Shown here: piece after piece, positions 25,362-34,924 of the stretch
How positions within the stretch are numbered: position 1 is the stretch's first letter
Layout of the letters: every line of letters begins with the position of its first letter
Assembly: GCA_964490075.1 (NCBI GenBank)
Contig: CAZBBK010000004.1
Coordinates: 62,001-126,000 of the forward strand
Reading direction: 5' to 3'
Origin: an uncultured Gemmatimonadota bacterium
Lineage (GTDB): Bacteria > GCA-2686955
Length of the DNA: 64,000 nucleotides
Notes under the pieces: generated by a model
What the model saw: only the letters and a program-made list of their open reading frames with translations
Told to the model about the DNA's origin: nothing
The model's database searches: none
Translations under genes and position numbers: made by a program

Positions 25362-26747
25362 GTGGAGGACGAAGGAGGCCGGGAGGGCGACGCGTTGCGC
25401 GTGGTGCTCGCCTATCACGAGCGCAGCAAGCACCATCCCTCGCGCTACGCGCGATCGCTGGGCTTCATGGACTGGGCCAATCAGCCCGACCCCTTCCGCC
25501 GTTTCGAAGGCGCCCGGTTGGTGGCGCTGGCGCAGGGGCGCGATGATGATGGCCCGGGATACGACTCGCTCTTGGCGGCGGAGCGGAGGGTAGAGCCGGC
25601 GAGCCTGGATGCCGATTCGATCGCCCGGCTCTTCTTCGACAGCCTGGCGCTATCGGCCTGGAAGGCGGCGGGCGGCACGCGCTGGGCGTTGCGCGTCAAC
25701 CCGTCCAGCGGCAATCTGCACCCGACCGAGGGCTACCTGCTCTGCGGGCCGATCGAGGGCTTGTGCGAGCTGCCGGGCTTGTGGCACTACGCGCCTGAGC
25801 GGCACGGGCTCGAGCTTCGTCGCGAGCTCTCCGCCGATGCCTGGCGCGCGCTCCGCGCGGAATCGCCCTACGACCTCTTCGTCGCCCTCACCAGCATCCA
25901 CTGGCGCGAGGCCTGGAAGTACGGCGAGCGCGCGTATCGCTACTGCCAGCACGACGCGGGGCATGCGATCGGCGCCCTGGCACTCGGCTGCGCGATCCTC
26001 GGGTGGCGCTGTGAATTGGTCGAATCGTGCAGCGACCCGGGGACAACACCGGCCGGCGCCGAGCCGGCGCGCCGGATCGTCCGCCGGCGGCGCAGCGCGG
26101 TGCGGATGGACGGCAGGACCGCGCTCGGGCGACGCGCCTTCTACGGCATGCTCTCGCGCCTGATGCCTCTCGAGAGGCATCCGCTGTGGAGCGCCTGGCC
26201 CTGGCCCGCCTGTATCGACCTGGCGCTCTTCGTGCACCGGGTGAAAGGGTTGCCGAGCGGCCTCTACTGGTTGCAGCGCGGCGCACGCCCTCTCGACGAA
26301 ATGGCGGCGGAGATGCGCTCGAGCTTCGCCTGGACCCGGCCCGAGGATTGCCCGGATGATCTGCCGCTGCGCCTGCTCGAAGCGGGCGACGTACGCACCC
26401 TGGCCGCACAGATTCCCTGCCAGCAGACGATCGCCGGCGACGGTGTGTTCGCCGCCGCGATGATCGCCGATTTCGCGGGCTCGCTCGAGTCGCGCGGCGC
26501 CTGGTTCTATCGCCGACTCTTCTGGGAGACCGGGATGCTGGGGCAGCTGCTCTATCTCGAGGCCGAGGCCGCGGGCATCCGCGGCACCGGAATCGGCTGC
26601 TTCTTCGACGACGCGATGCACGAGAGCCTTGGGCTGCGGGGCAACGATCGACAGTCCCTCTACCACTTCACGGTCGGTGGGCCGATCGAGGACGAGAGGA
26701 TTCAGACTCTGGCGGCGTATGGGCACCTGGAAGATCGTGGGCGCTAA
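25362..26747 (+). CDS. SagB/ThcOx-type nitroreductase family protein (two domains)
   Basis: YHERSKH, LRVNPSSGNLHPTE, WKYGERAYRY, RRRRSA, LYLEAEA, GIGCFFD. Confidence 0.88.
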   Translation: MEDEGGREGDALRVVLAYHERSKHHPSRYARSLGFMDWANQPDPFRRFEGARLVALAQGRDDDGPGYDSLLAAERRVEPASLDADSIARLFFDSLALSAWKAAGGTRWALRVNPSSGNLHPTEGYLLCGPIEGLCELPGLWHYAPERHGLELRRELSADAWRALRAESPYDLFVALTSIHWREAWKYGERAYRYCQHDAGHAIGALALGCAILGWRCELVESCSDPGTTPAGAEPARRIVRRRRSAVRMDGRTALGRRAFYGMLSRLMPLERHPLWSAWPWPACIDLALFVHRVKGLPSGLYWLQRGARPLDEMAAEMRSSFAWTRPEDCPDDLPLRLLEAGDVRTLAAQIPCQQTIAGDGVFAAAMIADFAGSLESRGAWFYRRLFWETGMLGQLLYLEAEAAGIRGTGIGCFFDDAMHESLGLRGNDRQSLYHFTVGGPIEDERIQTLAAYGHLEDRGR

Positions 26748-26855: not shown

Positions 26856-28193
26856 TCACTTCATCAGCAGGACTTTCCTCGTGTCGAGCGTCGCGCCGGC
26901 GACGAGGCGGATTGAGTAGGTCCCGAAGGCGACATGATTCCAGAGGGGGGCGCGCCCCGGGCTGTAGTAGTAGAGGGAGCGAAGGGAGGTTTCGGGGTCG
27001 CGGGCGAGCGCGAGGAATTGATCGTTCGCGTCGGCGGGAGCGCCCACGGCGATGGTCTCGGAAGGGGGCTCGGGCGAGCCCGCTCCGCCGAGCCAGCGCT
27101 CGAAGGGAGAGATGCTCTCGTGCCCGCCGTGGCAGAAGAGGCCACGGAGACCCGACACGAAGGTCCGCGATGCACTGCGCCAATCGGCGAAGATGCAGCC
27201 TATCCAGACCGATTCGCCCCCCCCGCCTCACAACCGCTGAACCAGATCGAGTCGAACGCGGTCCAAGCGCCGCCGGGCTCCGCGGGGCGGAGGTGAAGCT
27301 CGAGCTCGTTCCGGCCGTTGTTGTGGACGACCAGGGGTCGAGTCGGGTCGCTCGGTGAAGGGAAGATGCCTTCGGCATTATCGCCGTAATTCCCGAAGTA
27401 CCAGGCGGGCCGGGTCCACGCCCAGGTGGCGCCGAAATCCTCGCTCCAGCCAACGCCTCGGTCCCGGTCCGCGACGACGATCCAACCGCTGGCCAGCCAT
27501 GCCGCGGCACAAGGTTGGAAAGGACCAATCCCCCCCACTCAGAGCTTCCCAACTGTCGCCAGCATCGACGCTGAAGAAGAGGCCGGACCATTTCAGCGCC
27601 AGCAGGTTTTCCGGTGCTCCCGGGCGCACTCCGACGTGGAGGATATGCTGCCCCTCGATCCCATCCGATGAGAGGCTCCAAGTGTCGTCACCGGCGGTAT
27701 CGGCGCGGAAGATGCCGTGTCTCGACGAGGCCAGTACGGTGCCGCCGCCCGCGAGGGTGGTCAGCGCGGGGTTGCCCAGGAGACCCCCGGGTCGGGGAAT
27801 CGCTCGCCAGGCGCGATCGGTGTCGCGGCGGTAGAGGGCTCCCCAGGATTCGGCGACGTAGAGGCGTCCGGTCGCGGCGTCGAAGCTCAGATCGGAGTAG
27901 GCGGCGAGTGACAGATCGCTGCGCCAGGTGTTGCCACCGTCCTCGACTTGGGTCGCGATCTCGGTGAAGGTCTCGCCGGCATCGGTGGAGCGCAGCAGGG
28001 TGCCGTCGCAAAGACCGACGAAGAGGCGTCCGCCCACCAGGACGATGTCGGGGTCGTGCGGTGAGCTCGCCAGCGCTCCGGGGCCGTCGCCGCCGCCGGG
28101 GCCGAGGGATTCCCAGGCCGGCAGGGTCGCGAGGGCGGTGGATGCGAACGATGCCAGGAGGCTGAGGGAGAGGAGGCGCTCTGGTGTAGCCAT
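26856..28193 (-). pseudogene. Secreted BNR/Asp-box (VPS10-like) propeller protein broken by two frameshifts at G tracts
   Basis: Signal peptide, WESLGP, RSTDAGETF, SVDAGDSW, SEDFGATW spread over three ORF pieces joined at G7 (27530-27536) and G8 (27217-27224). Confidence 0.7.
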
Positions 28194-28429
28194 CGCCAGA
28201 TCCCGTTTCGGTGCACTCCGGTGGACGCGGGGACTTGCTGCTGTTCATGGTAGCGCCTCGACGGGAGCGCTTCAGGCGTTCGGTGCGCAACCGACGATTC
28301 GAGCCCATTATGGGGATCATTGCGGGCCTCTGGCCGCAAGCGCCTCCCCCCCGCTTCCGGTGACGGGCTGGGGTGTGGCGGCTTCTTGTTCGAAATCGCG
28401 CCCCGCGAGACGCGGGAGGAAGCAGAGGC

Positions 28430-30301
28430 ATGAGAGCTAGATGGCACCGCCCCCTGATCGGGGGGGGCCTGGCGGTAGTGTTGGTCGCGGGGGGCAGTGG
28501 ATCCCTCGACTGGGTTCGCGGGCGGCAAGACGCCCCGGTCTTCGCCCGCATCGACCGCATGGAAGAGAGCTACCTCCAGCTCGCGAAAACGCTGAAGACG
28601 ACGCTCGACCGCAGCGCGCAGAACCTGCGTTTGCCGGATTTCGCGAGCCGATCGCTCTTTGCCGAGCGGGTCGAGGTGCGCGACCTGGGGGCTGTGTCGG
28701 AGCCGGTCGCGCTGGGCGCGGAGGGGATCCGGCAACGCGGCTGGGAGGGCGAGAGCGGCTCGCGACGGGTCGCGATCGAGGATCTCTCGCTCTGGGAATC
28801 GCTCTGGAGGGAGATCGACTACCTTGAACGGGCCAAGTTCTACATCCACATGGGCGGCTTCGCCGACGACTCGGAGCTGCGCTACCAGGCCGGGGTCGGC
28901 TTCGAGGGTCTGGCCTGGCTCTGGGAGCGGCGCTGGGCGCAGCTGCGGGGGCGGATCGATGTGATGCTGGAGCGCGACTCGCGCGCGGCGCGGGATTGGC
29001 GCATCACGCGCTGGGAGAGCCGCGAGCTGGAGTCGGTGGAGCACGGCAGCTTGCTCTTCAGCGAAGTGCTGGACAGGGCGCTGCCGGAGGCGGAGCAGCG
29101 GCGGCGGGCGCGGCGTTCTCTGCACCAAGAGCTGGTGCTCGATTTCTTTCGCGAACCCGACTTCGAGGCGCCCAACGAGTTCTTCACCTTGCAGGCCTTC
29201 GATCGCCATCCGGGGCTGGCGGTCAACGACTTCGACGGCGATGGTGACGACGATCTTTACGCGGTCACGCGCTGGGGCAGGGCGCAGCTCTTTCGGCAGC
29301 AAGACGACGGTCGCTTCCACGAGGCGGCGGGCGAGGCCGGCATCGACCTGGAGGGGCATGCGTCGAGCGCGATCTTCGCCGACTTCGACAATGACGGCGA
29401 TGCCGATCTTTTCGTCGGGCGGACGCTGGAGCCGAGTCGCTACTTCGTCAACGAGGGGGGGGTGTTCGAGGACCGCAGCGCGGATCTGCCGGAGGGAGCG
29501 CTGCCTTTCCTGGTGTCGTCGGTCAACGCGGTCGACTACGACGGAGACGGTCTGCTCGATGTCTACTTCTCGACCTACGCCGCAGCCATGGCCCACCGCC
29601 GCTACTGGACACACCATTACCACGGCGGCGACGACCAGATCCTGCCGGAGTTTCTTTCGCGGGCCGAAAATCTGGAGCTGAGCCGGCGTTTCGCCGGTGA
29701 GTGGCACGACTATCAGAACCGCGTCGGACCGCCGAACGTGCTGCTGCACAACCGGGGGCGGCGGCGTTTCGAGCGGGTTCGAGTCCCCGCGTTGGAGATC
29801 TGGCGCAACAGCTACCAGACCACCTGGGCCGACTTCGACGGCGACGGCGACGCCGACTGTTATGTGGCCAACGATTTCGCCAAGAACCACATGCTGCGCA
29901 ACGAAGGCGAGGGCGTCTTCGTCGACGTCACCGAGCCGACCGGCACCGCCGACATCGGTTTCGGGATGGGCGCCGCCTGGGGCGACTACGACAACGATGG
30001 AGACGACGATCTGTACGTCACCAACATGTTCAGCAAGGCGGGACAGCGCATCGTCTCGCATCTTCCCGAGATCGACCCCAGCTTCGCCAACATGGCCCGC
30101 GGCAACACTCTGTTTCGCAACGATTCGGATCGTTTCAAGGCGGTCTCGGGGCTGGCGCCGCCGGCGCTGACGGTGGAGCGAGCCGGCTGGGCCTGGGGGG
30201 GGCAATTCTTCGATGCCGACAACGATGGCTGTCTCGACCTCTACTCGCTCTCCGGCTTCTACACCGCGCCCGACGAGGTGGCGATCCCGGTCGATACCTG
30301 A
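28430..30301 (+). CDS. FG-GAP/VCBS-repeat (CRTAC1-like) exported protein, N-terminal part; probably reads through its TGA into the next ORF
   Basis: N-terminal hydrophobic segment; repeated DFDGDGDxDL/DYDNDG motifs; GWAWGGQFFDADNDG; ends IPVDT-TGA. Confidence 0.9.
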   Translation: MRARWHRPLIGGGLAVVLVAGGSGSLDWVRGRQDAPVFARIDRMEESYLQLAKTLKTTLDRSAQNLRLPDFASRSLFAERVEVRDLGAVSEPVALGAEGIRQRGWEGESGSRRVAIEDLSLWESLWREIDYLERAKFYIHMGGFADDSELRYQAGVGFEGLAWLWERRWAQLRGRIDVMLERDSRAARDWRITRWESRELESVEHGSLLFSEVLDRALPEAEQRRRARRSLHQELVLDFFREPDFEAPNEFFTLQAFDRHPGLAVNDFDGDGDDDLYAVTRWGRAQLFRQQDDGRFHEAAGEAGIDLEGHASSAIFADFDNDGDADLFVGRTLEPSRYFVNEGGVFEDRSADLPEGALPFLVSSVNAVDYDGDGLLDVYFSTYAAAMAHRRYWTHHYHGGDDQILPEFLSRAENLELSRRFAGEWHDYQNRVGPPNVLLHNRGRRRFERVRVPALEIWRNSYQTTWADFDGDGDADCYVANDFAKNHMLRNEGEGVFVDVTEPTGTADIGFGMGAAWGDYDNDGDDDLYVTNMFSKAGQRIVSHLPEIDPSFANMARGNTLFRNDSDRFKAVSGLAPPALTVERAGWAWGGQFFDADNDGCLDLYSLSGFYTAPDEVAIPVDT

Positions 30302-31036
30302 AGCCATTTCTGGCGCACGGTCGTGCGCAGCGATCGCAAGGGGCTGAAGGGCGACCCGGCCGCGCGCGACCAGGGGTTCCGGTCGGCCGAAAACCGCAGG
30401 CTCGGCGGCGCGCGGGCGCCGACCGACGTGCGCATCAACGACGACGGCTCGTCGATGAGCGGCGGCGAGCGCAATCACTTCTTCCTGAGCCTGGGCTGCG
30501 GGGAGCAGTTCGCGGACATCTCCGCGATCTCAGGGCTCGACAGCGCGGCCGACGGCAGGGCCTTTGCCTGCTGGGATTTCGATCGCGACGGTTGGACCGA
30601 CATCGCCCTGGTGAACGCCAACGCACCGCAGCTCGGCATCTACCGCAACAACATGGGCGATCTGGAGAGGGCGCGCGGAGGATCGAAAGGCAGCATCGCG
30701 CTGCGCTTCGCCGGCGGCAACCGCCGGGCGCTGCCCTCCGGCGAGTGGAGCAACGCCGACGGCTACGGCGCGCGGGTGGTGGCGACTCTGAGCGGGCGCA
30801 GACTGACGCGCGAGCAGCGGGCGGGAGAGGGGCTGGCGGCGCAGAACAGCGCCACGATGGTGATCGGCATCGGCGCGGAGGAGAGGGTCGAGCGACTCGA
30901 GGTGCTCTGGCCCTCGGGCATCCGGCGCTCGATCGAAGCGGTGCCGGTGGGATCGCTGGTGGACGCCTACGAGGATCCGACGCAGTCTCCTACCGGAGAG
31001 GCGTTCGTGGTCTCGGAGTACGGAGCGGACCGATGA
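30302..31036 (+). CDS. ASPIC/UnbV-domain C-terminal part of the same CRTAC1-like protein, in frame after the TGA
   Basis: SHFWRTVV..., SMSGGERNHFF, ISAISGLD, DFDRDGWTD, SNADGYGARV, GEGLAAQNS, LEVLWPSG; no own signal peptide or obvious RBS. Confidence 0.85.
   Translation, partial: SHFWRTVVRSDRKGLKGDPAARDQGFRSAENRRLGGARAPTDVRINDDGSSMSGGERNHFFLSLGCGEQFADISAISGLDSAADGRAFACWDFDRDGWTDIALVNANAPQLGIYRNNMGDLERARGGSKGSIALRFAGGNRRALPSGEWSNADGYGARVVATLSGRRLTREQRAGEGLAAQNSATMVIGIGAEERVERLEVLWPSGIRRSIEAVPVGSLVDAYEDPTQSPTGEAFVVSEYGADR
30310..30330 (+). promoter_or_regulatory. Candidate bacterial SECIS element
   Basis: CU-(G bulge)-GCGCAC [GGUC] GUGCGC-AG hairpin; loop at +21..+24 counting U of UGA as +1. 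Confidence 0.65.
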
Positions 31037-31554
31037 CACAGTTTCTGCTGACCTGGGCCCTGGTGCTGGTGCAGGCCGCCCCGCGACCCGCGGACGCGGC
31101 GCCGCCCTGGGTGGCCGAGGCGCGCGAGATCGACCTGGAGAGCGTGCGGCTGCGGCCGGCGGGAACGCGGGAGAGCGAAGCGGCGCTGCTCAGCTTCACG
31201 ACCTTTGCGACCTGGTGCTCGGCCTGCAAGCGCGAGCTGCCGCAGTTCGACGCACTGCGAGCTCGATTCGGGGCGCGGGAGCTGCGCCTCTTCGGGGTCG
31301 CCATCGACGAGAAGGACACGCCGGCGAAGCTGGATGCCTACCGGCGGGAGCATCGTCCCGGCTACGAGCTACTGGGGGAGCTTCCCGCCGCAGAGCGGAT
31401 TCTGCTGCGGCAGGTGATCATCAAGGAGCTGGGGGTGGACGGTCTGCCCGCGACTGTCGTCACCCGCGGGGACGGAAGGGTGGTGCACGTGCAGAGCGGA
31501 GTGCCGACGCTCTCCCAGGTGCGACGGCTGCTGGTCGCCGAGGGTGGAAGATGA
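31033..31554 (+). CDS. TlpA-like thioredoxin-fold protein, exported
   Basis: Signal-like N-terminus, FATWCSACKRELP, cis-Pro GLPAT; ATGA overlaps with both neighbours. Confidence 0.85.
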   Translation: MTQFLLTWALVLVQAAPRPADAAPPWVAEAREIDLESVRLRPAGTRESEAALLSFTTFATWCSACKRELPQFDALRARFGARELRLFGVAIDEKDTPAKLDAYRREHRPGYELLGELPAAERILLRQVIIKELGVDGLPATVVTRGDGRVVHVQSGVPTLSQVRRLLVAEGGR

Positions 31555-33836
31555 GCCTCTTCGCACGGGATTCGGATCGGGGCGGCCGGAGCGAGGCGGG
31601 TGCGGCGGCGGGCCGGCGGGCGGCGCGCAGCGGGTTCCTGCTTCTCGCCGCCGTGCCGCTGGCGATGCTCTCGGCGGCGTGGCTCGCCCGCCGGCCGATC
31701 GCCATGAGCGCGCGGCTGGAGCAGATCGCCGAAGATCTCGATCCGGTGCGCTACAGGTCGGCGCGGCTGGAGCGCAAGGCAGCCGCGGAGGCGGAGTCGG
31801 CGCGCTGGAGCTGGCGCCACGGCAAGGCCTTGCTCGACGAGGGGCGCAACGAGGAATCGGTCGAAGCGCTCGCCCGGGCGCTGCGACTGGCCCAGGACCA
31901 GTCGGCGGAGGCGTCGTTGCTGCGGGAGCTTCGCGGCTCGCTGGCGACGGCCTGGTTGCGGCTGGGCGAGCAGCAAAACTGCATCGAGCGCCACAATGCC
32001 GATGCCTGTCTGCTGCCGATTCGCTCCGCGGCGGTCCACGCCCTGCCGCGCGGTTCGCGGCGGGCGATCGAGGAGCTGGAGCATCTGCTCGAGTCGGATC
32101 CCGACGATCTCGCCAGCCGCTGGCTGCTCAACATCGCTCACATGACCCTGGGCCGCTACCCGCGGGGCGTGCCGGAGCGCTGGCTGATTCCGGAAAATGT
32201 GTTCGCATCGGAGGAGTCGTTCCCGCGCTTCCGCGACGTGGCGGAGCAGGCCGGCGTGGCGGCCTTCAATCTGGCCGGCGGAAGTGTCGCCGACGATTTC
32301 GACGGCGACGGGTTGATCGATATCGTGACCTCGGGCATGGATCCGCGCGATCAATTGCGCTTCTTCCGCAACGAGGGCGACGGCACTTTCGCCGATCGGA
32401 CCGAGGCGGCCGGACTGCTGGGCGAATGGGGCGGCCTGAACCTGATCCACGCCGACTACGACAACGACGGCGACCGTGATCTGCTGGTGCTGCGCGGCGG
32501 CTGGATGAGCCTGCTGGTGGGGGCGGGACGCAGCGGACACCCCAACTCGCTGCTGCGCAACGAGGGCGACGGCACCTTCACGAACGTCACCCAGAGCGCC
32601 GGATTGCTCTCCTTCCACCCGACCCAGACCGCCGCCTGGGGGGACTACGACAACGACGGATGGCTGGACCTGGTGGTCGGCAACGAGTCGACGGCGGAAG
32701 ACCCCCATCCTCCGGAGCTCTTCCACAACCAGGGAGACGGCAGCTTCGTCGAGGTCGCCGCCCGGGTCGGCCTGGGCCCGATGGGATTCGTCAAGGCGGT
32801 GGCCTGGGGGGACTACGACAACGACGACCGCCTCGATCTCTATGTGTCGCGGCATGGCGCGAGCAACCTGCTCTTCCACAACGAGTGGCGGCCGGAGGGC
32901 GGGGTGGGCTTCGTCGATCGAACCCGGGAGGCCGGCGTCGCGGAGCCTCATTGGAGCTTTCCGGCCTGGTTCTGGGACTACGACAACGACGGCTGGCTCG
33001 ACCTCTTCGTGGCGGGCTACACCGATCCGGTCGATCCTCCGATCGAGGACGCCGCCAACGACTACCTCGGGCGGCCGCTGGTGGGCTCCGACCATCCGCG
33101 CCTCTATCACAACCGAGGAGACGGCAGCTTCGAGGAGCGCAGCGCCGAAGCCGGACTCGACCGCACGGTCTTCGTCATGGGAGCCAACTACGGCGACCTC
33201 GACAACGACGGCTTCCTCGATCTCTACCTGGGGACGGGCGCGCCCAGCTACCGCGCGCTGCTGCCGAATCGGATGTTCCGCTCGTTGGCGGGGATGCGCT
33301 TCGCGGATGTCACCACGGCGGGAGGATTCGGGCACGCTCAGAAGGGGCACGGGGTGTCGTTCGCCGATTTCGACAACGACGGGGACCAGGACCTCTATCA
33401 CCAGCTCGGGGGCTTCTATCCCGGGGACGCGTTCCAGAACGCGCTCTTCGAGAACCCCGGCGGCGCCAATGCCTGGCTCGGCCTGGAGCTGGTGGGCGTC
33501 GACTCGAATCGGGATGGCCTGGGGGCGAGGCTGCGGGTGGTGGTGCGGACCGCGGAGGGGAGGCGCGCGATTCGCGCGCTGGTGAGCAGCGGCGGCAGCT
33601 TCGGGGGATCACCCTTCCGGGTCGAGCTGGGACTGGGGCGGGCCGAGGCCGTAGAGGTGCTGGAGGTGCACTGGCCGGCGACGGGCAAGACCCAGCGCGT
33701 CAACGACTTGGCCCCGAATCGCCGGTACCGGATCCGCGAGGGCGAGAGCCGCGCCACGGCGATCGGATTGGAGCGATTCCGGCTCGGCGGAGAGGCCGCG
33801 ACGCGAGGGCCGGAAGGTGGTGTTATGCTTGGGTGA
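31551..33836 (+). CDS. TPR + FG-GAP + ASPIC/UnbV (CRTAC1-like) protein
   Basis: TM segment, LRLGEQQNC, WLLNIAHMTLG, many DYDNDG repeats, QKGHGV, SNRDGLGAR, SGGSFG, VHWP. Confidence 0.9.
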   Translation: MSLFARDSDRGGRSEAGAAAGRRAARSGFLLLAAVPLAMLSAAWLARRPIAMSARLEQIAEDLDPVRYRSARLERKAAAEAESARWSWRHGKALLDEGRNEESVEALARALRLAQDQSAEASLLRELRGSLATAWLRLGEQQNCIERHNADACLLPIRSAAVHALPRGSRRAIEELEHLLESDPDDLASRWLLNIAHMTLGRYPRGVPERWLIPENVFASEESFPRFRDVAEQAGVAAFNLAGGSVADDFDGDGLIDIVTSGMDPRDQLRFFRNEGDGTFADRTEAAGLLGEWGGLNLIHADYDNDGDRDLLVLRGGWMSLLVGAGRSGHPNSLLRNEGDGTFTNVTQSAGLLSFHPTQTAAWGDYDNDGWLDLVVGNESTAEDPHPPELFHNQGDGSFVEVAARVGLGPMGFVKAVAWGDYDNDDRLDLYVSRHGASNLLFHNEWRPEGGVGFVDRTREAGVAEPHWSFPAWFWDYDNDGWLDLFVAGYTDPVDPPIEDAANDYLGRPLVGSDHPRLYHNRGDGSFEERSAEAGLDRTVFVMGANYGDLDNDGFLDLYLGTGAPSYRALLPNRMFRSLAGMRFADVTTAGGFGHAQKGHGVSFADFDNDGDQDLYHQLGGFYPGDAFQNALFENPGGANAWLGLELVGVDSNRDGLGARLRVVVRTAEGRRAIRALVSSGGSFGGSPFRVELGLGRAEAVEVLEVHWPATGKTQRVNDLAPNRRYRIREGESRATAIGLERFRLGGEAATRGPEGGVMLG

Positions 33837-33952
33837 CGAGGAGGTGCTTTCGGGACTCCTCATGACCGATTCGGGCCTTCATCGAACACCACCGGCCAAT
33901 CCACCCAAGAGCCTATTGCACCAAGGCCTCCAACCCCCGGGGGGGGAAATCC

Positions 33953-34924
33953 ATGACCAAAGCACTCCTCGGCGCAGCCGCCGTCGCGCTGCTCGCGCTG
34001 CCCGTCCACGCCCTTGCCGCCAACCACTCCCACGACGCCGCCCGCCAGGGCGAGGCGGTCCAGGAGATGCTCGACGCCAACGGCGTGGTAGACACCGATG
34101 CCTACTACGAATACCAGCTGAAGAGCCTCGACGAGCTCTGGGACGTGCTCGACGTCTACGCCAGCACTCCCGGCGAAGAGGCCTACCTGAGCTTCACGAT
34201 TCACTGGACCAACGCCTCGATCGATTGGTGCATGTGGCTGGTGCTCGATACCGTGACCTGGGTGGTCTACGACGGCAACATCAACGGCACCATCTGCTGC
34301 AGCGGCAACTGGATCATCGACAGCGTGACCCCGCAAGGCGGCCGTTGCTACCAGCTGCTGGCGCACCAGACCGCCTGCTCGGGCTCTTGCGCCGACGACA
34401 TTTGCATGGACGGGTGCAAAGATTCACCCGGCTTCATCAATGACGCCACCTACGGCTGGTGGGGCAGCTGCACCGACTTCATCGCCGACGGTGCCATCAA
34501 CGCCTGCGAGTACGGCGTGACCACGCTCCACAGCTACGACGATATCAGTGGTGTGGTCGGGTCTCAGTATTCCGGTGTCACCTACTCGGCCGGCTGGCAG
34601 ACCTGGGATTCGCGAGGAAACACCTACTATGACCCCTTCAGCGATCCCAACGTGATCTACACCCACGAGGCGACCAATTCCGTCGTGTGGGAGCACAAAA
34701 TCAACAACCTGGATTTCTACGCCTCGACCTACGGTGAGGGCGGAGACACTTTCTACTACACCGTGTATGACAAGGACGACGTCCAGCTCGCCCAGACGAC
34801 CTTGGGGCACGGCAACAACCAGCTCGTGACCTTCAGCGCAACTGGGATCAAGAAGATGGTCGTGACCGGCACCGGCAGCTGGACGACGCACCACACGATC
34901 GACCACCTCTCCTGGGTGAAGTAG
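33953..34924 (+). CDS. Secreted cysteine-rich hypothetical protein
   Basis: Signal peptide ending ALA, GC3-biased codons, 10 Cys in the central region, tandem TAG TAG stop. Confidence 0.75.
   Translation: MTKALLGAAAVALLALPVHALAANHSHDAARQGEAVQEMLDANGVVDTDAYYEYQLKSLDELWDVLDVYASTPGEEAYLSFTIHWTNASIDWCMWLVLDTVTWVVYDGNINGTICCSGNWIIDSVTPQGGRCYQLLAHQTACSGSCADDICMDGCKDSPGFINDATYGWWGSCTDFIADGAINACEYGVTTLHSYDDISGVVGSQYSGVTYSAGWQTWDSRGNTYYDPFSDPNVIYTHEATNSVVWEHKINNLDFYASTYGEGGDTFYYTVYDKDDVQLAQTTLGHGNNQLVTFSATGIKKMVVTGTGSWTTHHTIDHLSWVK

Follow-up and report, generated by a model that had tools for sequence, protein, structure and literature searches.

Selenoprotein genes of the Escherichia coli fdhF type have an in-frame UGA, a stem-loop that lies within the open reading frame (ORF) roughly 11-14 nucleotides downstream, a G and a U in the apical loop of this structure, and a genome that supplies selA, selB, selC and selD. 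The rule for the E. coli selenocysteine insertion sequence (SECIS), as set out in a review (PMC8659212), is a 17-nucleotide stem-loop at positions 15-31, 11 nucleotides from the UGA, which includes U17 and has G23 and U24 as loop bases. In this work we describe a gene with the same general features from an uncultured Gemmatimonadota bacterium. It lies in a window of 64,000 nucleotides, which is the whole stretch of DNA that was analysed (contig CAZBBK010000004.1, positions 62,001 to 126,000; here contig C4 of a 5.7 Mb genome that is 95% complete). The gene differs from fdhF in several respects. Its product is unrelated to the fdhF protein, has no molybdopterin and is exported, the hairpin loop is one nucleotide nearer to the UGA, no bulged U equivalent to U17 was identified, and two loop registers (of 4 nucleotides, and of 5 or 3 nucleotides) coexist within the family to which the gene belongs.

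Two further systems are useful for comparison. The first is CRTAC1, the animal cartilage acidic protein 1 (PDB 9etn), which like the product of our gene has an FG-GAP propeller with Dx[DN]xDG loops, followed by a UnbV_ASPIC domain. The clade of the window protein adds to this an N-terminal alpha+beta domain, a helix with the selenocysteine (Sec) motif D[TL]-U-S-x-x-W-R-x-V-V and a thioredoxin-fold partner. None of the paper listings from our literature search credits CRTAC1 with a redox or selenium site. The second is the group of TlpA, ResA and DsbE thioredoxins, which share with the product of the next gene downstream (31033-31554) an AhpC-TSA/Redoxin fold, a WCxxC motif, a cis-proline and an N-terminal export segment. 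Here the thioredoxin is tied by fusion or gene overlap to a propeller selenoprotein, and not to cytochrome maturation.

The features that bear on the decoding of the gene are as follows.

28414..28419, + strand: Shine-Dalgarno-like GGGAGG, 10 nucleotides upstream of the ATG at 28430, read from the sequence
28430..31036, + strand: putative selenoprotein gene, 868 codons and a final TGA (31034-31036), with one internal TGA
30299..30301, + strand: in-frame TGA, the proposed Sec codon (residue 624), in a column conserved as TGA in homologs
30313..30328, + strand: core of a SECIS-like hairpin, a 6-base-pair stem GCGCAC/GUGCGC with the loop GGUC at +21..+24 (the U of UGA is +1)

An initial annotation of this DNA had described a single frame of 868 residues interrupted by one TGA at residue 624, and all of its coordinates hold. 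The frame that starts at the ATG has this TGA as its sole internal stop and is otherwise open to the final TGA. The read-through product has the recoded residue in the context ...IPVDT-U-SHFWRTVV... The same study provides a contig from another sample that is identical to the window over 30270-30420, including the TGA, so this codon is not the error of one assembly. NCBIfam holds no model for the 28430-31036 protein.

Decoding of the internal TGA

The initial annotation had taken the UGA to encode Sec, and had suggested that the genome be searched for selA, selB, selC and selD. All of these are present. The curated cut-offs are exceeded by selA (505.9 bits, cut-off 268), selB (345.6 bits, cut-off 242) and selD (317.9 bits, cut-off 125), and ARAGORN finds one tRNA-SeC(tca). 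The selD gene (contig C65, locus L010) is likewise a selenoprotein gene: its in-frame TGA lies in PAGG-U-ARK and is followed by the hairpin GACCUG-GUC-CAGGUC. Since selA, selB and tRNA-SeC are accompanied by a selD that is itself a selenoprotein gene, we conclude that this organism decodes UGA as Sec.

The codon is also conserved. When 41 related genomes were searched, two more homologs with a single in-frame TGA in the same region were recovered. The first, a paralog with 40% identity, is on contig C24 of the window's own genome (L031:964-3702, - strand); this further selenoprotein gene of the family would encode 913 residues with U545 and a fused thioredoxin domain (WCRIC). The other, L014, is the ortholog of this paralog in a genome of the same family. 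Both read ...MHDT-U-SQHWRHV..., and their U aligns in one column with that of the window protein. A wider scan, with one genome per species, gave 80 loci, and together with L013, L014 and L031 a total of 83 loci were compared using residues 570-700 as a tblastn query. The alignment extends across the Sec column in 30 loci, and 20 of these (the window's own copy included) have TGA there. A further TGA, in L102, is offset by one alignment column, giving 21 TGA sites, 20 of them beyond the window. The carriers are from at least five named phyla: Gemmatimonadota, Verrucomicrobiota, Pseudomonadota, Planctomycetota and Acidobacteriota. Three motif-bearing loci have GAG, GGC or TCC at this column, and six others are weak alignments without the motif. 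At the Sec column, neither TAA nor TAG, a Cys codon or a frame change occurs in any of the 30 aligned loci or in L102, and the comparison that the initial annotation had suggested thus comes out in favour of TGA.

The residues around U624 that are conserved in the family are D622, T623, S625, W628, R629 and V631. In 36 sequences W628 is invariant, and R629 and D622 are at least 90% conserved; the Ser after U is encoded by AGY as well as by TCG. Because the residues directly 3′ of the codon are among the best conserved, the stretch after the TGA appears to be translated in frame. The same boundary can be seen in protein databases. When 1.84 billion cluster representatives were searched with a profile, 34 of the best 150 terminate precisely at ...D[TLIVS], as would a gene call that halts at the TGA; genes of this family are routinely cut in two by annotation.

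The hairpin at 30313-30328 is exactly as the initial annotation had drawn it, with its stem spanning positions 15-30 from the UGA. In GC-rich DNA the energy of this hairpin by itself is not beyond chance, and its significance comes only from a comparison of homologs. That comparison, which had also been proposed at the outset, gave a hairpin within +14..+32 at all 21 TGA sites, with a 5′ arm that starts at +14 to +18, and with compensatory changes. In the window's clade (8 sequences with a 4-nucleotide loop, mostly GGUC) 92.9% of cells pair, vs 12-70% when the partner is slid, and two pairs have changed on both sides. In the other clade (9 sequences with a loop of 5 or 3 nucleotides) 87.3% of cells pair. 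Here the pair 18-28, which ties the synonymous third base of an Arg codon to the residue after VV, is CG in four sequences, UA in three and AU in two. Three homologs without a TGA (L040, L042 and L043) keep the peptide WRxxV, and all three are without the hairpin. We built a covariance model from 9 sites of the other clade and used it to search 672,643 bases. There were 14 matches at E<=1, all at TGA sites, of which 5 were outside the training set, and the window's hairpin site is matched at an E-value of 0.034. A scan of 30200-30450 against Rfam gave chance-level matches only (E >= 2.5).

Taken together, the machinery, the conservation of the TGA and the covariation of the hairpin strongly support recoding as Sec, about as well as a comparison of sequences allows, and they bear out the proposal that was made at the start.

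The propeller protein and its proposed thioredoxin partner

The remaining features describe the end of the protein and the two genes that follow it.

30761..30955, + strand: ASPIC/UnbV domain (residues 778-842), Pfam PF07593, 49.7 bits (cut-off 23.4)
31033..31554, + strand: TlpA/ResA-like thioredoxin-fold gene, 173 residues, WCSAC, with a hydrophobic N-terminus; AhpC-TSA 32.6 bits (cut-off 26)
31551..33836, + strand: TPR, FG-GAP and ASPIC/UnbV protein without Sec, the third gene of the overlapping set

Upstream of the ASPIC/UnbV domain, Pfam finds FG-GAP_3 (PF13517, 127 bits, in four stretches) and FG-GAP (PF01839, 60 bits), all above their cut-offs. An AlphaFold2 model from a 36-sequence alignment has a mean predicted local distance difference test score (pLDDT) of 88.7 and a predicted template modelling score (pTM) of 0.90. 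The order in the model is a disordered stretch (residues 1-32, with a hydrophobic signal or anchor within it), an alpha+beta domain of about residues 33-245, the propeller and the ASPIC domain. The N-terminal domain (28526-29164) is confidently modelled, with one long helix and a curved sheet of long strands; it matches no Pfam family and is common to the whole Sec-bearing family. U624 is modelled as the first residue of a helix (624-633, pLDDT about 87), which is followed by a low-confidence insert at 640-668. With Foldseek the best match in the PDB is murine CRTAC1 (9etn_A), with an E-value of 1.4e-26, a template modelling score of 0.72 on the target and 16% identity, while all other matches are near 1e-8. 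There are four cysteines in the window protein, and none of them is conserved in the family.

The initial annotation had suggested an exported and probably Ca-binding propeller. This fits the fold match to CRTAC1, the hydrophobic N-terminus, the lipoprotein-like signals (lipoboxes) with which relatives start, and seven loops of the Dx[DN]xDG type, in which the Asp and Gly are invariant. A Ca2+-related role has been described for such loops (PMC3123361). The product thus fits an exported CRTAC1-like propeller with Ca motifs and an ASPIC/UnbV domain, and the binding of Ca2+ is predicted. The neighbour at 31551 was said to have the same domains in one piece, and Pfam agrees, adding weak TPR matches.

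One gene had been overlooked in this earlier description, namely the small ORF between the two propeller genes, which is likely to encode a thioredoxin-type redox partner. ATGA overlaps are found at both of its junctions, with the selenoprotein gene at 31033-31036 and with the TPR gene at 31551-31554, and these suggest that the three genes are translationally coupled. Two relatives, L045 and L046, instead have the TPR part fused behind the thioredoxin domain. C62, C65 and the cis-proline position P139 of the thioredoxin are invariant in 17 sequences. No NCBIfam model matches this ORF, and in the paralog P0002 the fused domain gives only weak matches to ResA, DsbE and TlpA (32.7, 23.2 and 22.6 bits, with cut-offs of 170, 123 and 230). 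The 31033-31554 product is a thioredoxin-fold relative and not a member of the named ResA, DsbE or TlpA families.

A thioredoxin domain accompanies 17 of the 21 TGA loci. In 16 of them it follows the ASPIC domain as an in-frame fusion, in one, the window, it is separate, and its CxxC is always intact. Among the best 150 representatives, both of the clear Cys forms keep the domain with its CxxC, and the other 53 rows comprise 7 that keep CxxC, 11 with a decayed motif and 35 without a thioredoxin domain. Two acidobacterial forms, L042 (Ser at the Sec column) and L043 (Gly), have lost the first Cys of the CxxC, so that their motifs are TPLC and ASLC. From these distributions the association between Sec and the thioredoxin looks real, but not absolute. 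A strict rule in which Sec equals CxxC was considered and rejected, given that CxxC is found in the 7 non-Sec representatives and in L040, and that three Pirellulaceae Sec forms are without the thioredoxin. Genes for a membrane conduit of reductant, of the DsbD_TM/CcdA type, are present on contigs C2, C13 and C32 of the window's genome, and none of them adjoins either Sec locus.

Proposed mechanism and alternative readings

The explanation that we favour is that SelB and tRNA-Sec decode the TGA at 30299-30301 as Sec, under the direction of the hairpin that starts 14 nucleotides downstream, within the reading frame. The product would be a single exported protein of 868 residues, made up of a signal or anchor, the alpha+beta domain, the Ca-motif propeller and the ASPIC/UnbV domain. 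Sec624 would act outside the cytoplasm as a redox-active nucleophile, a role that we propose because the residue is placed at the N-terminal end of a helix in a protein that has no conserved Cys. Once it is oxidised, to a selenenic acid or a selenenylsulfide, the WCxxC of the TlpA-like thioredoxin may return it to the reduced state, and this thioredoxin may in turn receive electrons from a membrane conduit of the CcdA/DsbD type. The substrate might be a peroxide or another extracytoplasmic oxidant. Relatives that have S, E, N, D or A in place of Sec have probably given up this chemistry, and in these the thioredoxin domain would tend to be lost or to decay. The steps up to the single exported product are borne out by the comparison of homologs, while the part concerning function, a redox Sec that is recycled by the thioredoxin, is inferred. 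We regard the explanation as a whole, i.e. Sec decoding together with an exported redox selenoprotein recycled by a thioredoxin, as very likely. The further proposal that a catalytic Sec, a Ca-binding CRTAC1-type propeller and a dedicated TlpA-like thioredoxin make up a new and ancient class of extracytoplasmic selenoenzymes is a serious possibility that we place a little below an even chance.

Several results weigh against this explanation. For the hairpin, the covariance model missed 7 of the 12 non-training TGA sites at E<=1. The 71-nucleotide fold of the window is no more stable than its controls (z = 0.08 with dinucleotide shuffles and z = -0.25 with synonymous codons as the reference), and when 20 TGA sites are compared with synonymous-codon controls, z averages about -1 and is positive at three of them. 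Part of the pairing is also forced by the protein sequence, because the stem overlaps the conserved WRxVV codons. For the machinery, selB is present in 17 of 19 genomes with the TGA form and in 17 of the 22 compared genomes without it; as selB is common in both, its co-occurrence discriminates little. Two metagenome-assembled genomes (MAGs) that carry the TGA show no selB. For the function, the initial annotation had expected Cys at the aligned position, and selenoproteins usually have plentiful Cys homologs. Here Cys is rare, with two clear cases (P0034 and P0089) among the best 150 representatives, and the column table of 56 rows is otherwise diverse (S 12, E 9, N 8, A 6, D 6, R 4 and others). 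Four TGA loci are without a thioredoxin domain, three of them from Pirellulaceae (searched with 3-kb flanks) and one, L036, at a contig end. Conversely, CxxC is intact in the 7 representatives that have neither Sec nor Cys and in L040, which has Glu. The scarcity of Cys, the diversity of the replacing residues and the CxxC of some non-Sec forms argue against a redox function in particular.

How far do simpler explanations account for the locus? A lone in-frame stop resembles a fresh nonsense mutation, and gene callers split such genes, as in the 34 truncated representatives. One could therefore suspect a recent pseudogene or an assembly error, with the TGA as a genuine early stop or as a wrongly called base. 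However, 20 other homologs, which come from several phyla and include the 40%-identical paralog, share this codon at the column, it is never TAA or TAG, conservation goes on past it and the second sample has an identical contig. This reading can be all but dismissed. A second idea is that there are two genes, one for a propeller fragment that ends at the TGA and one for an ASPIC fragment whose translation starts anew downstream. There is an in-frame GTG (30323) 24 nucleotides past the TGA, within the hairpin, and the databases hold both halves separately (e.g. P0007 and P0018). Against this, S625, W628, R629 and V631, which lie between the TGA and the restart, are among the best conserved residues of the family, relatives without the TGA are continuous here, the model folds both parts as one propeller with its high pTM, and no Shine-Dalgarno sequence was seen upstream of GTG 30323. 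We therefore consider two genes to be extremely improbable.

The other two alternatives accept that the UGA is translated. It might be read through without Sec, by a near-cognate Trp, Cys or Arg, perhaps with stimulation by the hairpin, in order to set the ratio of a short and a long product. The rare Cys homologs and diverse replacements, which are unusual for a catalytic Sec, are what this would lead us to expect, as are the two MAGs in which selB was not seen. But selB is present in the remaining 17 of 19 TGA-bearing genomes and the window's genome has the full machinery; only TGA is used, and the distance and G-U-containing loop of the hairpin match the E. coli rule (PMC8659212). In addition, the link to a thioredoxin whose CxxC is intact speaks for chalcogen redox chemistry, and the only complete genome without selB in the set has GGC and not TGA at this position (L043, the chromosome of Tunturiibacter gelidiferens, where no selB scores above the cut-off). 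Read-through of this kind is, in our judgement, very unlikely. A less remote option is that Sec is inserted but is not catalytic, serving as a ligand for a metal or metalloid, or as a selenium-dependent switch for making the ASPIC and thioredoxin part. The many replacements by non-thiol residues, with the helix motif WRxVV retained, are in keeping with this, as are the propeller's want of a conserved Cys partner and the Sec forms that have no thioredoxin domain nearby. It is harder to reconcile with the thioredoxin, fused or adjacent and never without its CxxC, that accompanies 17 of the 21 TGA loci, with the two Cys forms that both keep the domain, or with the two non-Sec acidobacterial forms that lost the first Cys. 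The position of U624 at a helix N-terminus, which is typical of activated nucleophiles, also argues for catalysis. A non-catalytic Sec is thus a possible but somewhat doubtful reading, and a redox-active Sec624 is the one that we prefer.

Family history, novelty and surrounding sequence

We built a tree of 36 sequences from which the Sec column was left out. Sec forms are found on both sides of the deepest split, with a support of 100 on each side, and the non-Sec forms are nested among them; the well-supported branches force at least six changes of state. From this placement we infer that Sec is ancestral in the family and has been lost repeatedly. The window protein and the paralog on contig C24 are in different major clades, so that one genome holds both. 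The nearest relative of the window protein is a Gemmatimonadota protein with 56% identity, in which the thioredoxin is fused.

A literature search that combined selenoprotein or selenocysteine with FG-GAP, ASPIC, UnbV, CRTAC1 or VCBS returned nothing relevant. The family terms are absent from the main texts of a 2026 review, BSepDB (2026) and deep-Sep (2025), whose supplementary family tables may list the family. Likewise, FG-GAP and UnbV are absent from the main text of the study of selenoprotein candidates in the planctomycetes P1 and P2 by Kim et al. 2016 (PMC4807772, PLoS One), whose S9 Table may likewise list the family. On the evidence of the homologs, the internal TGA is almost certainly read as Sec, and the gene belongs to a widespread bacterial selenoprotein family that goes unmentioned in the main texts of selenoprotein catalogues. 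It may be missed by searches because it does not obey the 'Sec/Cys pair' rule, which underlies most searches for selenoproteins. Because such genes are cut at the TGA, the genomes of marine, soil and sediment bacteria are likely to under-report both their selenoproteomes and the size of their exported proteins.

To our knowledge the ASPIC/UnbV (CRTAC1) fold has no assigned chemical function, and a selenium site with a thioredoxin-type partner provides a testable handle on it. The window is convenient for such work. It is a natural split form, in which the putative selenoprotein and the thioredoxin are separate, overlapping genes, and it is therefore suited to tests of the partnership in trans. 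If the proposed class with a catalytic Sec is real, the family would rank with the more widely distributed of the bacterial selenoprotein families that the catalogues still lack, and it would provide the first chemical function for the CRTAC1/ASPIC fold.

A scan of 27800-34200 for sigma-70 promoters and terminators gave nothing that exceeds shuffled sequences. Most of the other ORFs that were tested around the locus are without a Pfam family. One ORF upstream of the selenoprotein gene (25362-26747, + strand) has a C-terminal domain of the Nitroreductase family (Pfam, 39.8 bits).

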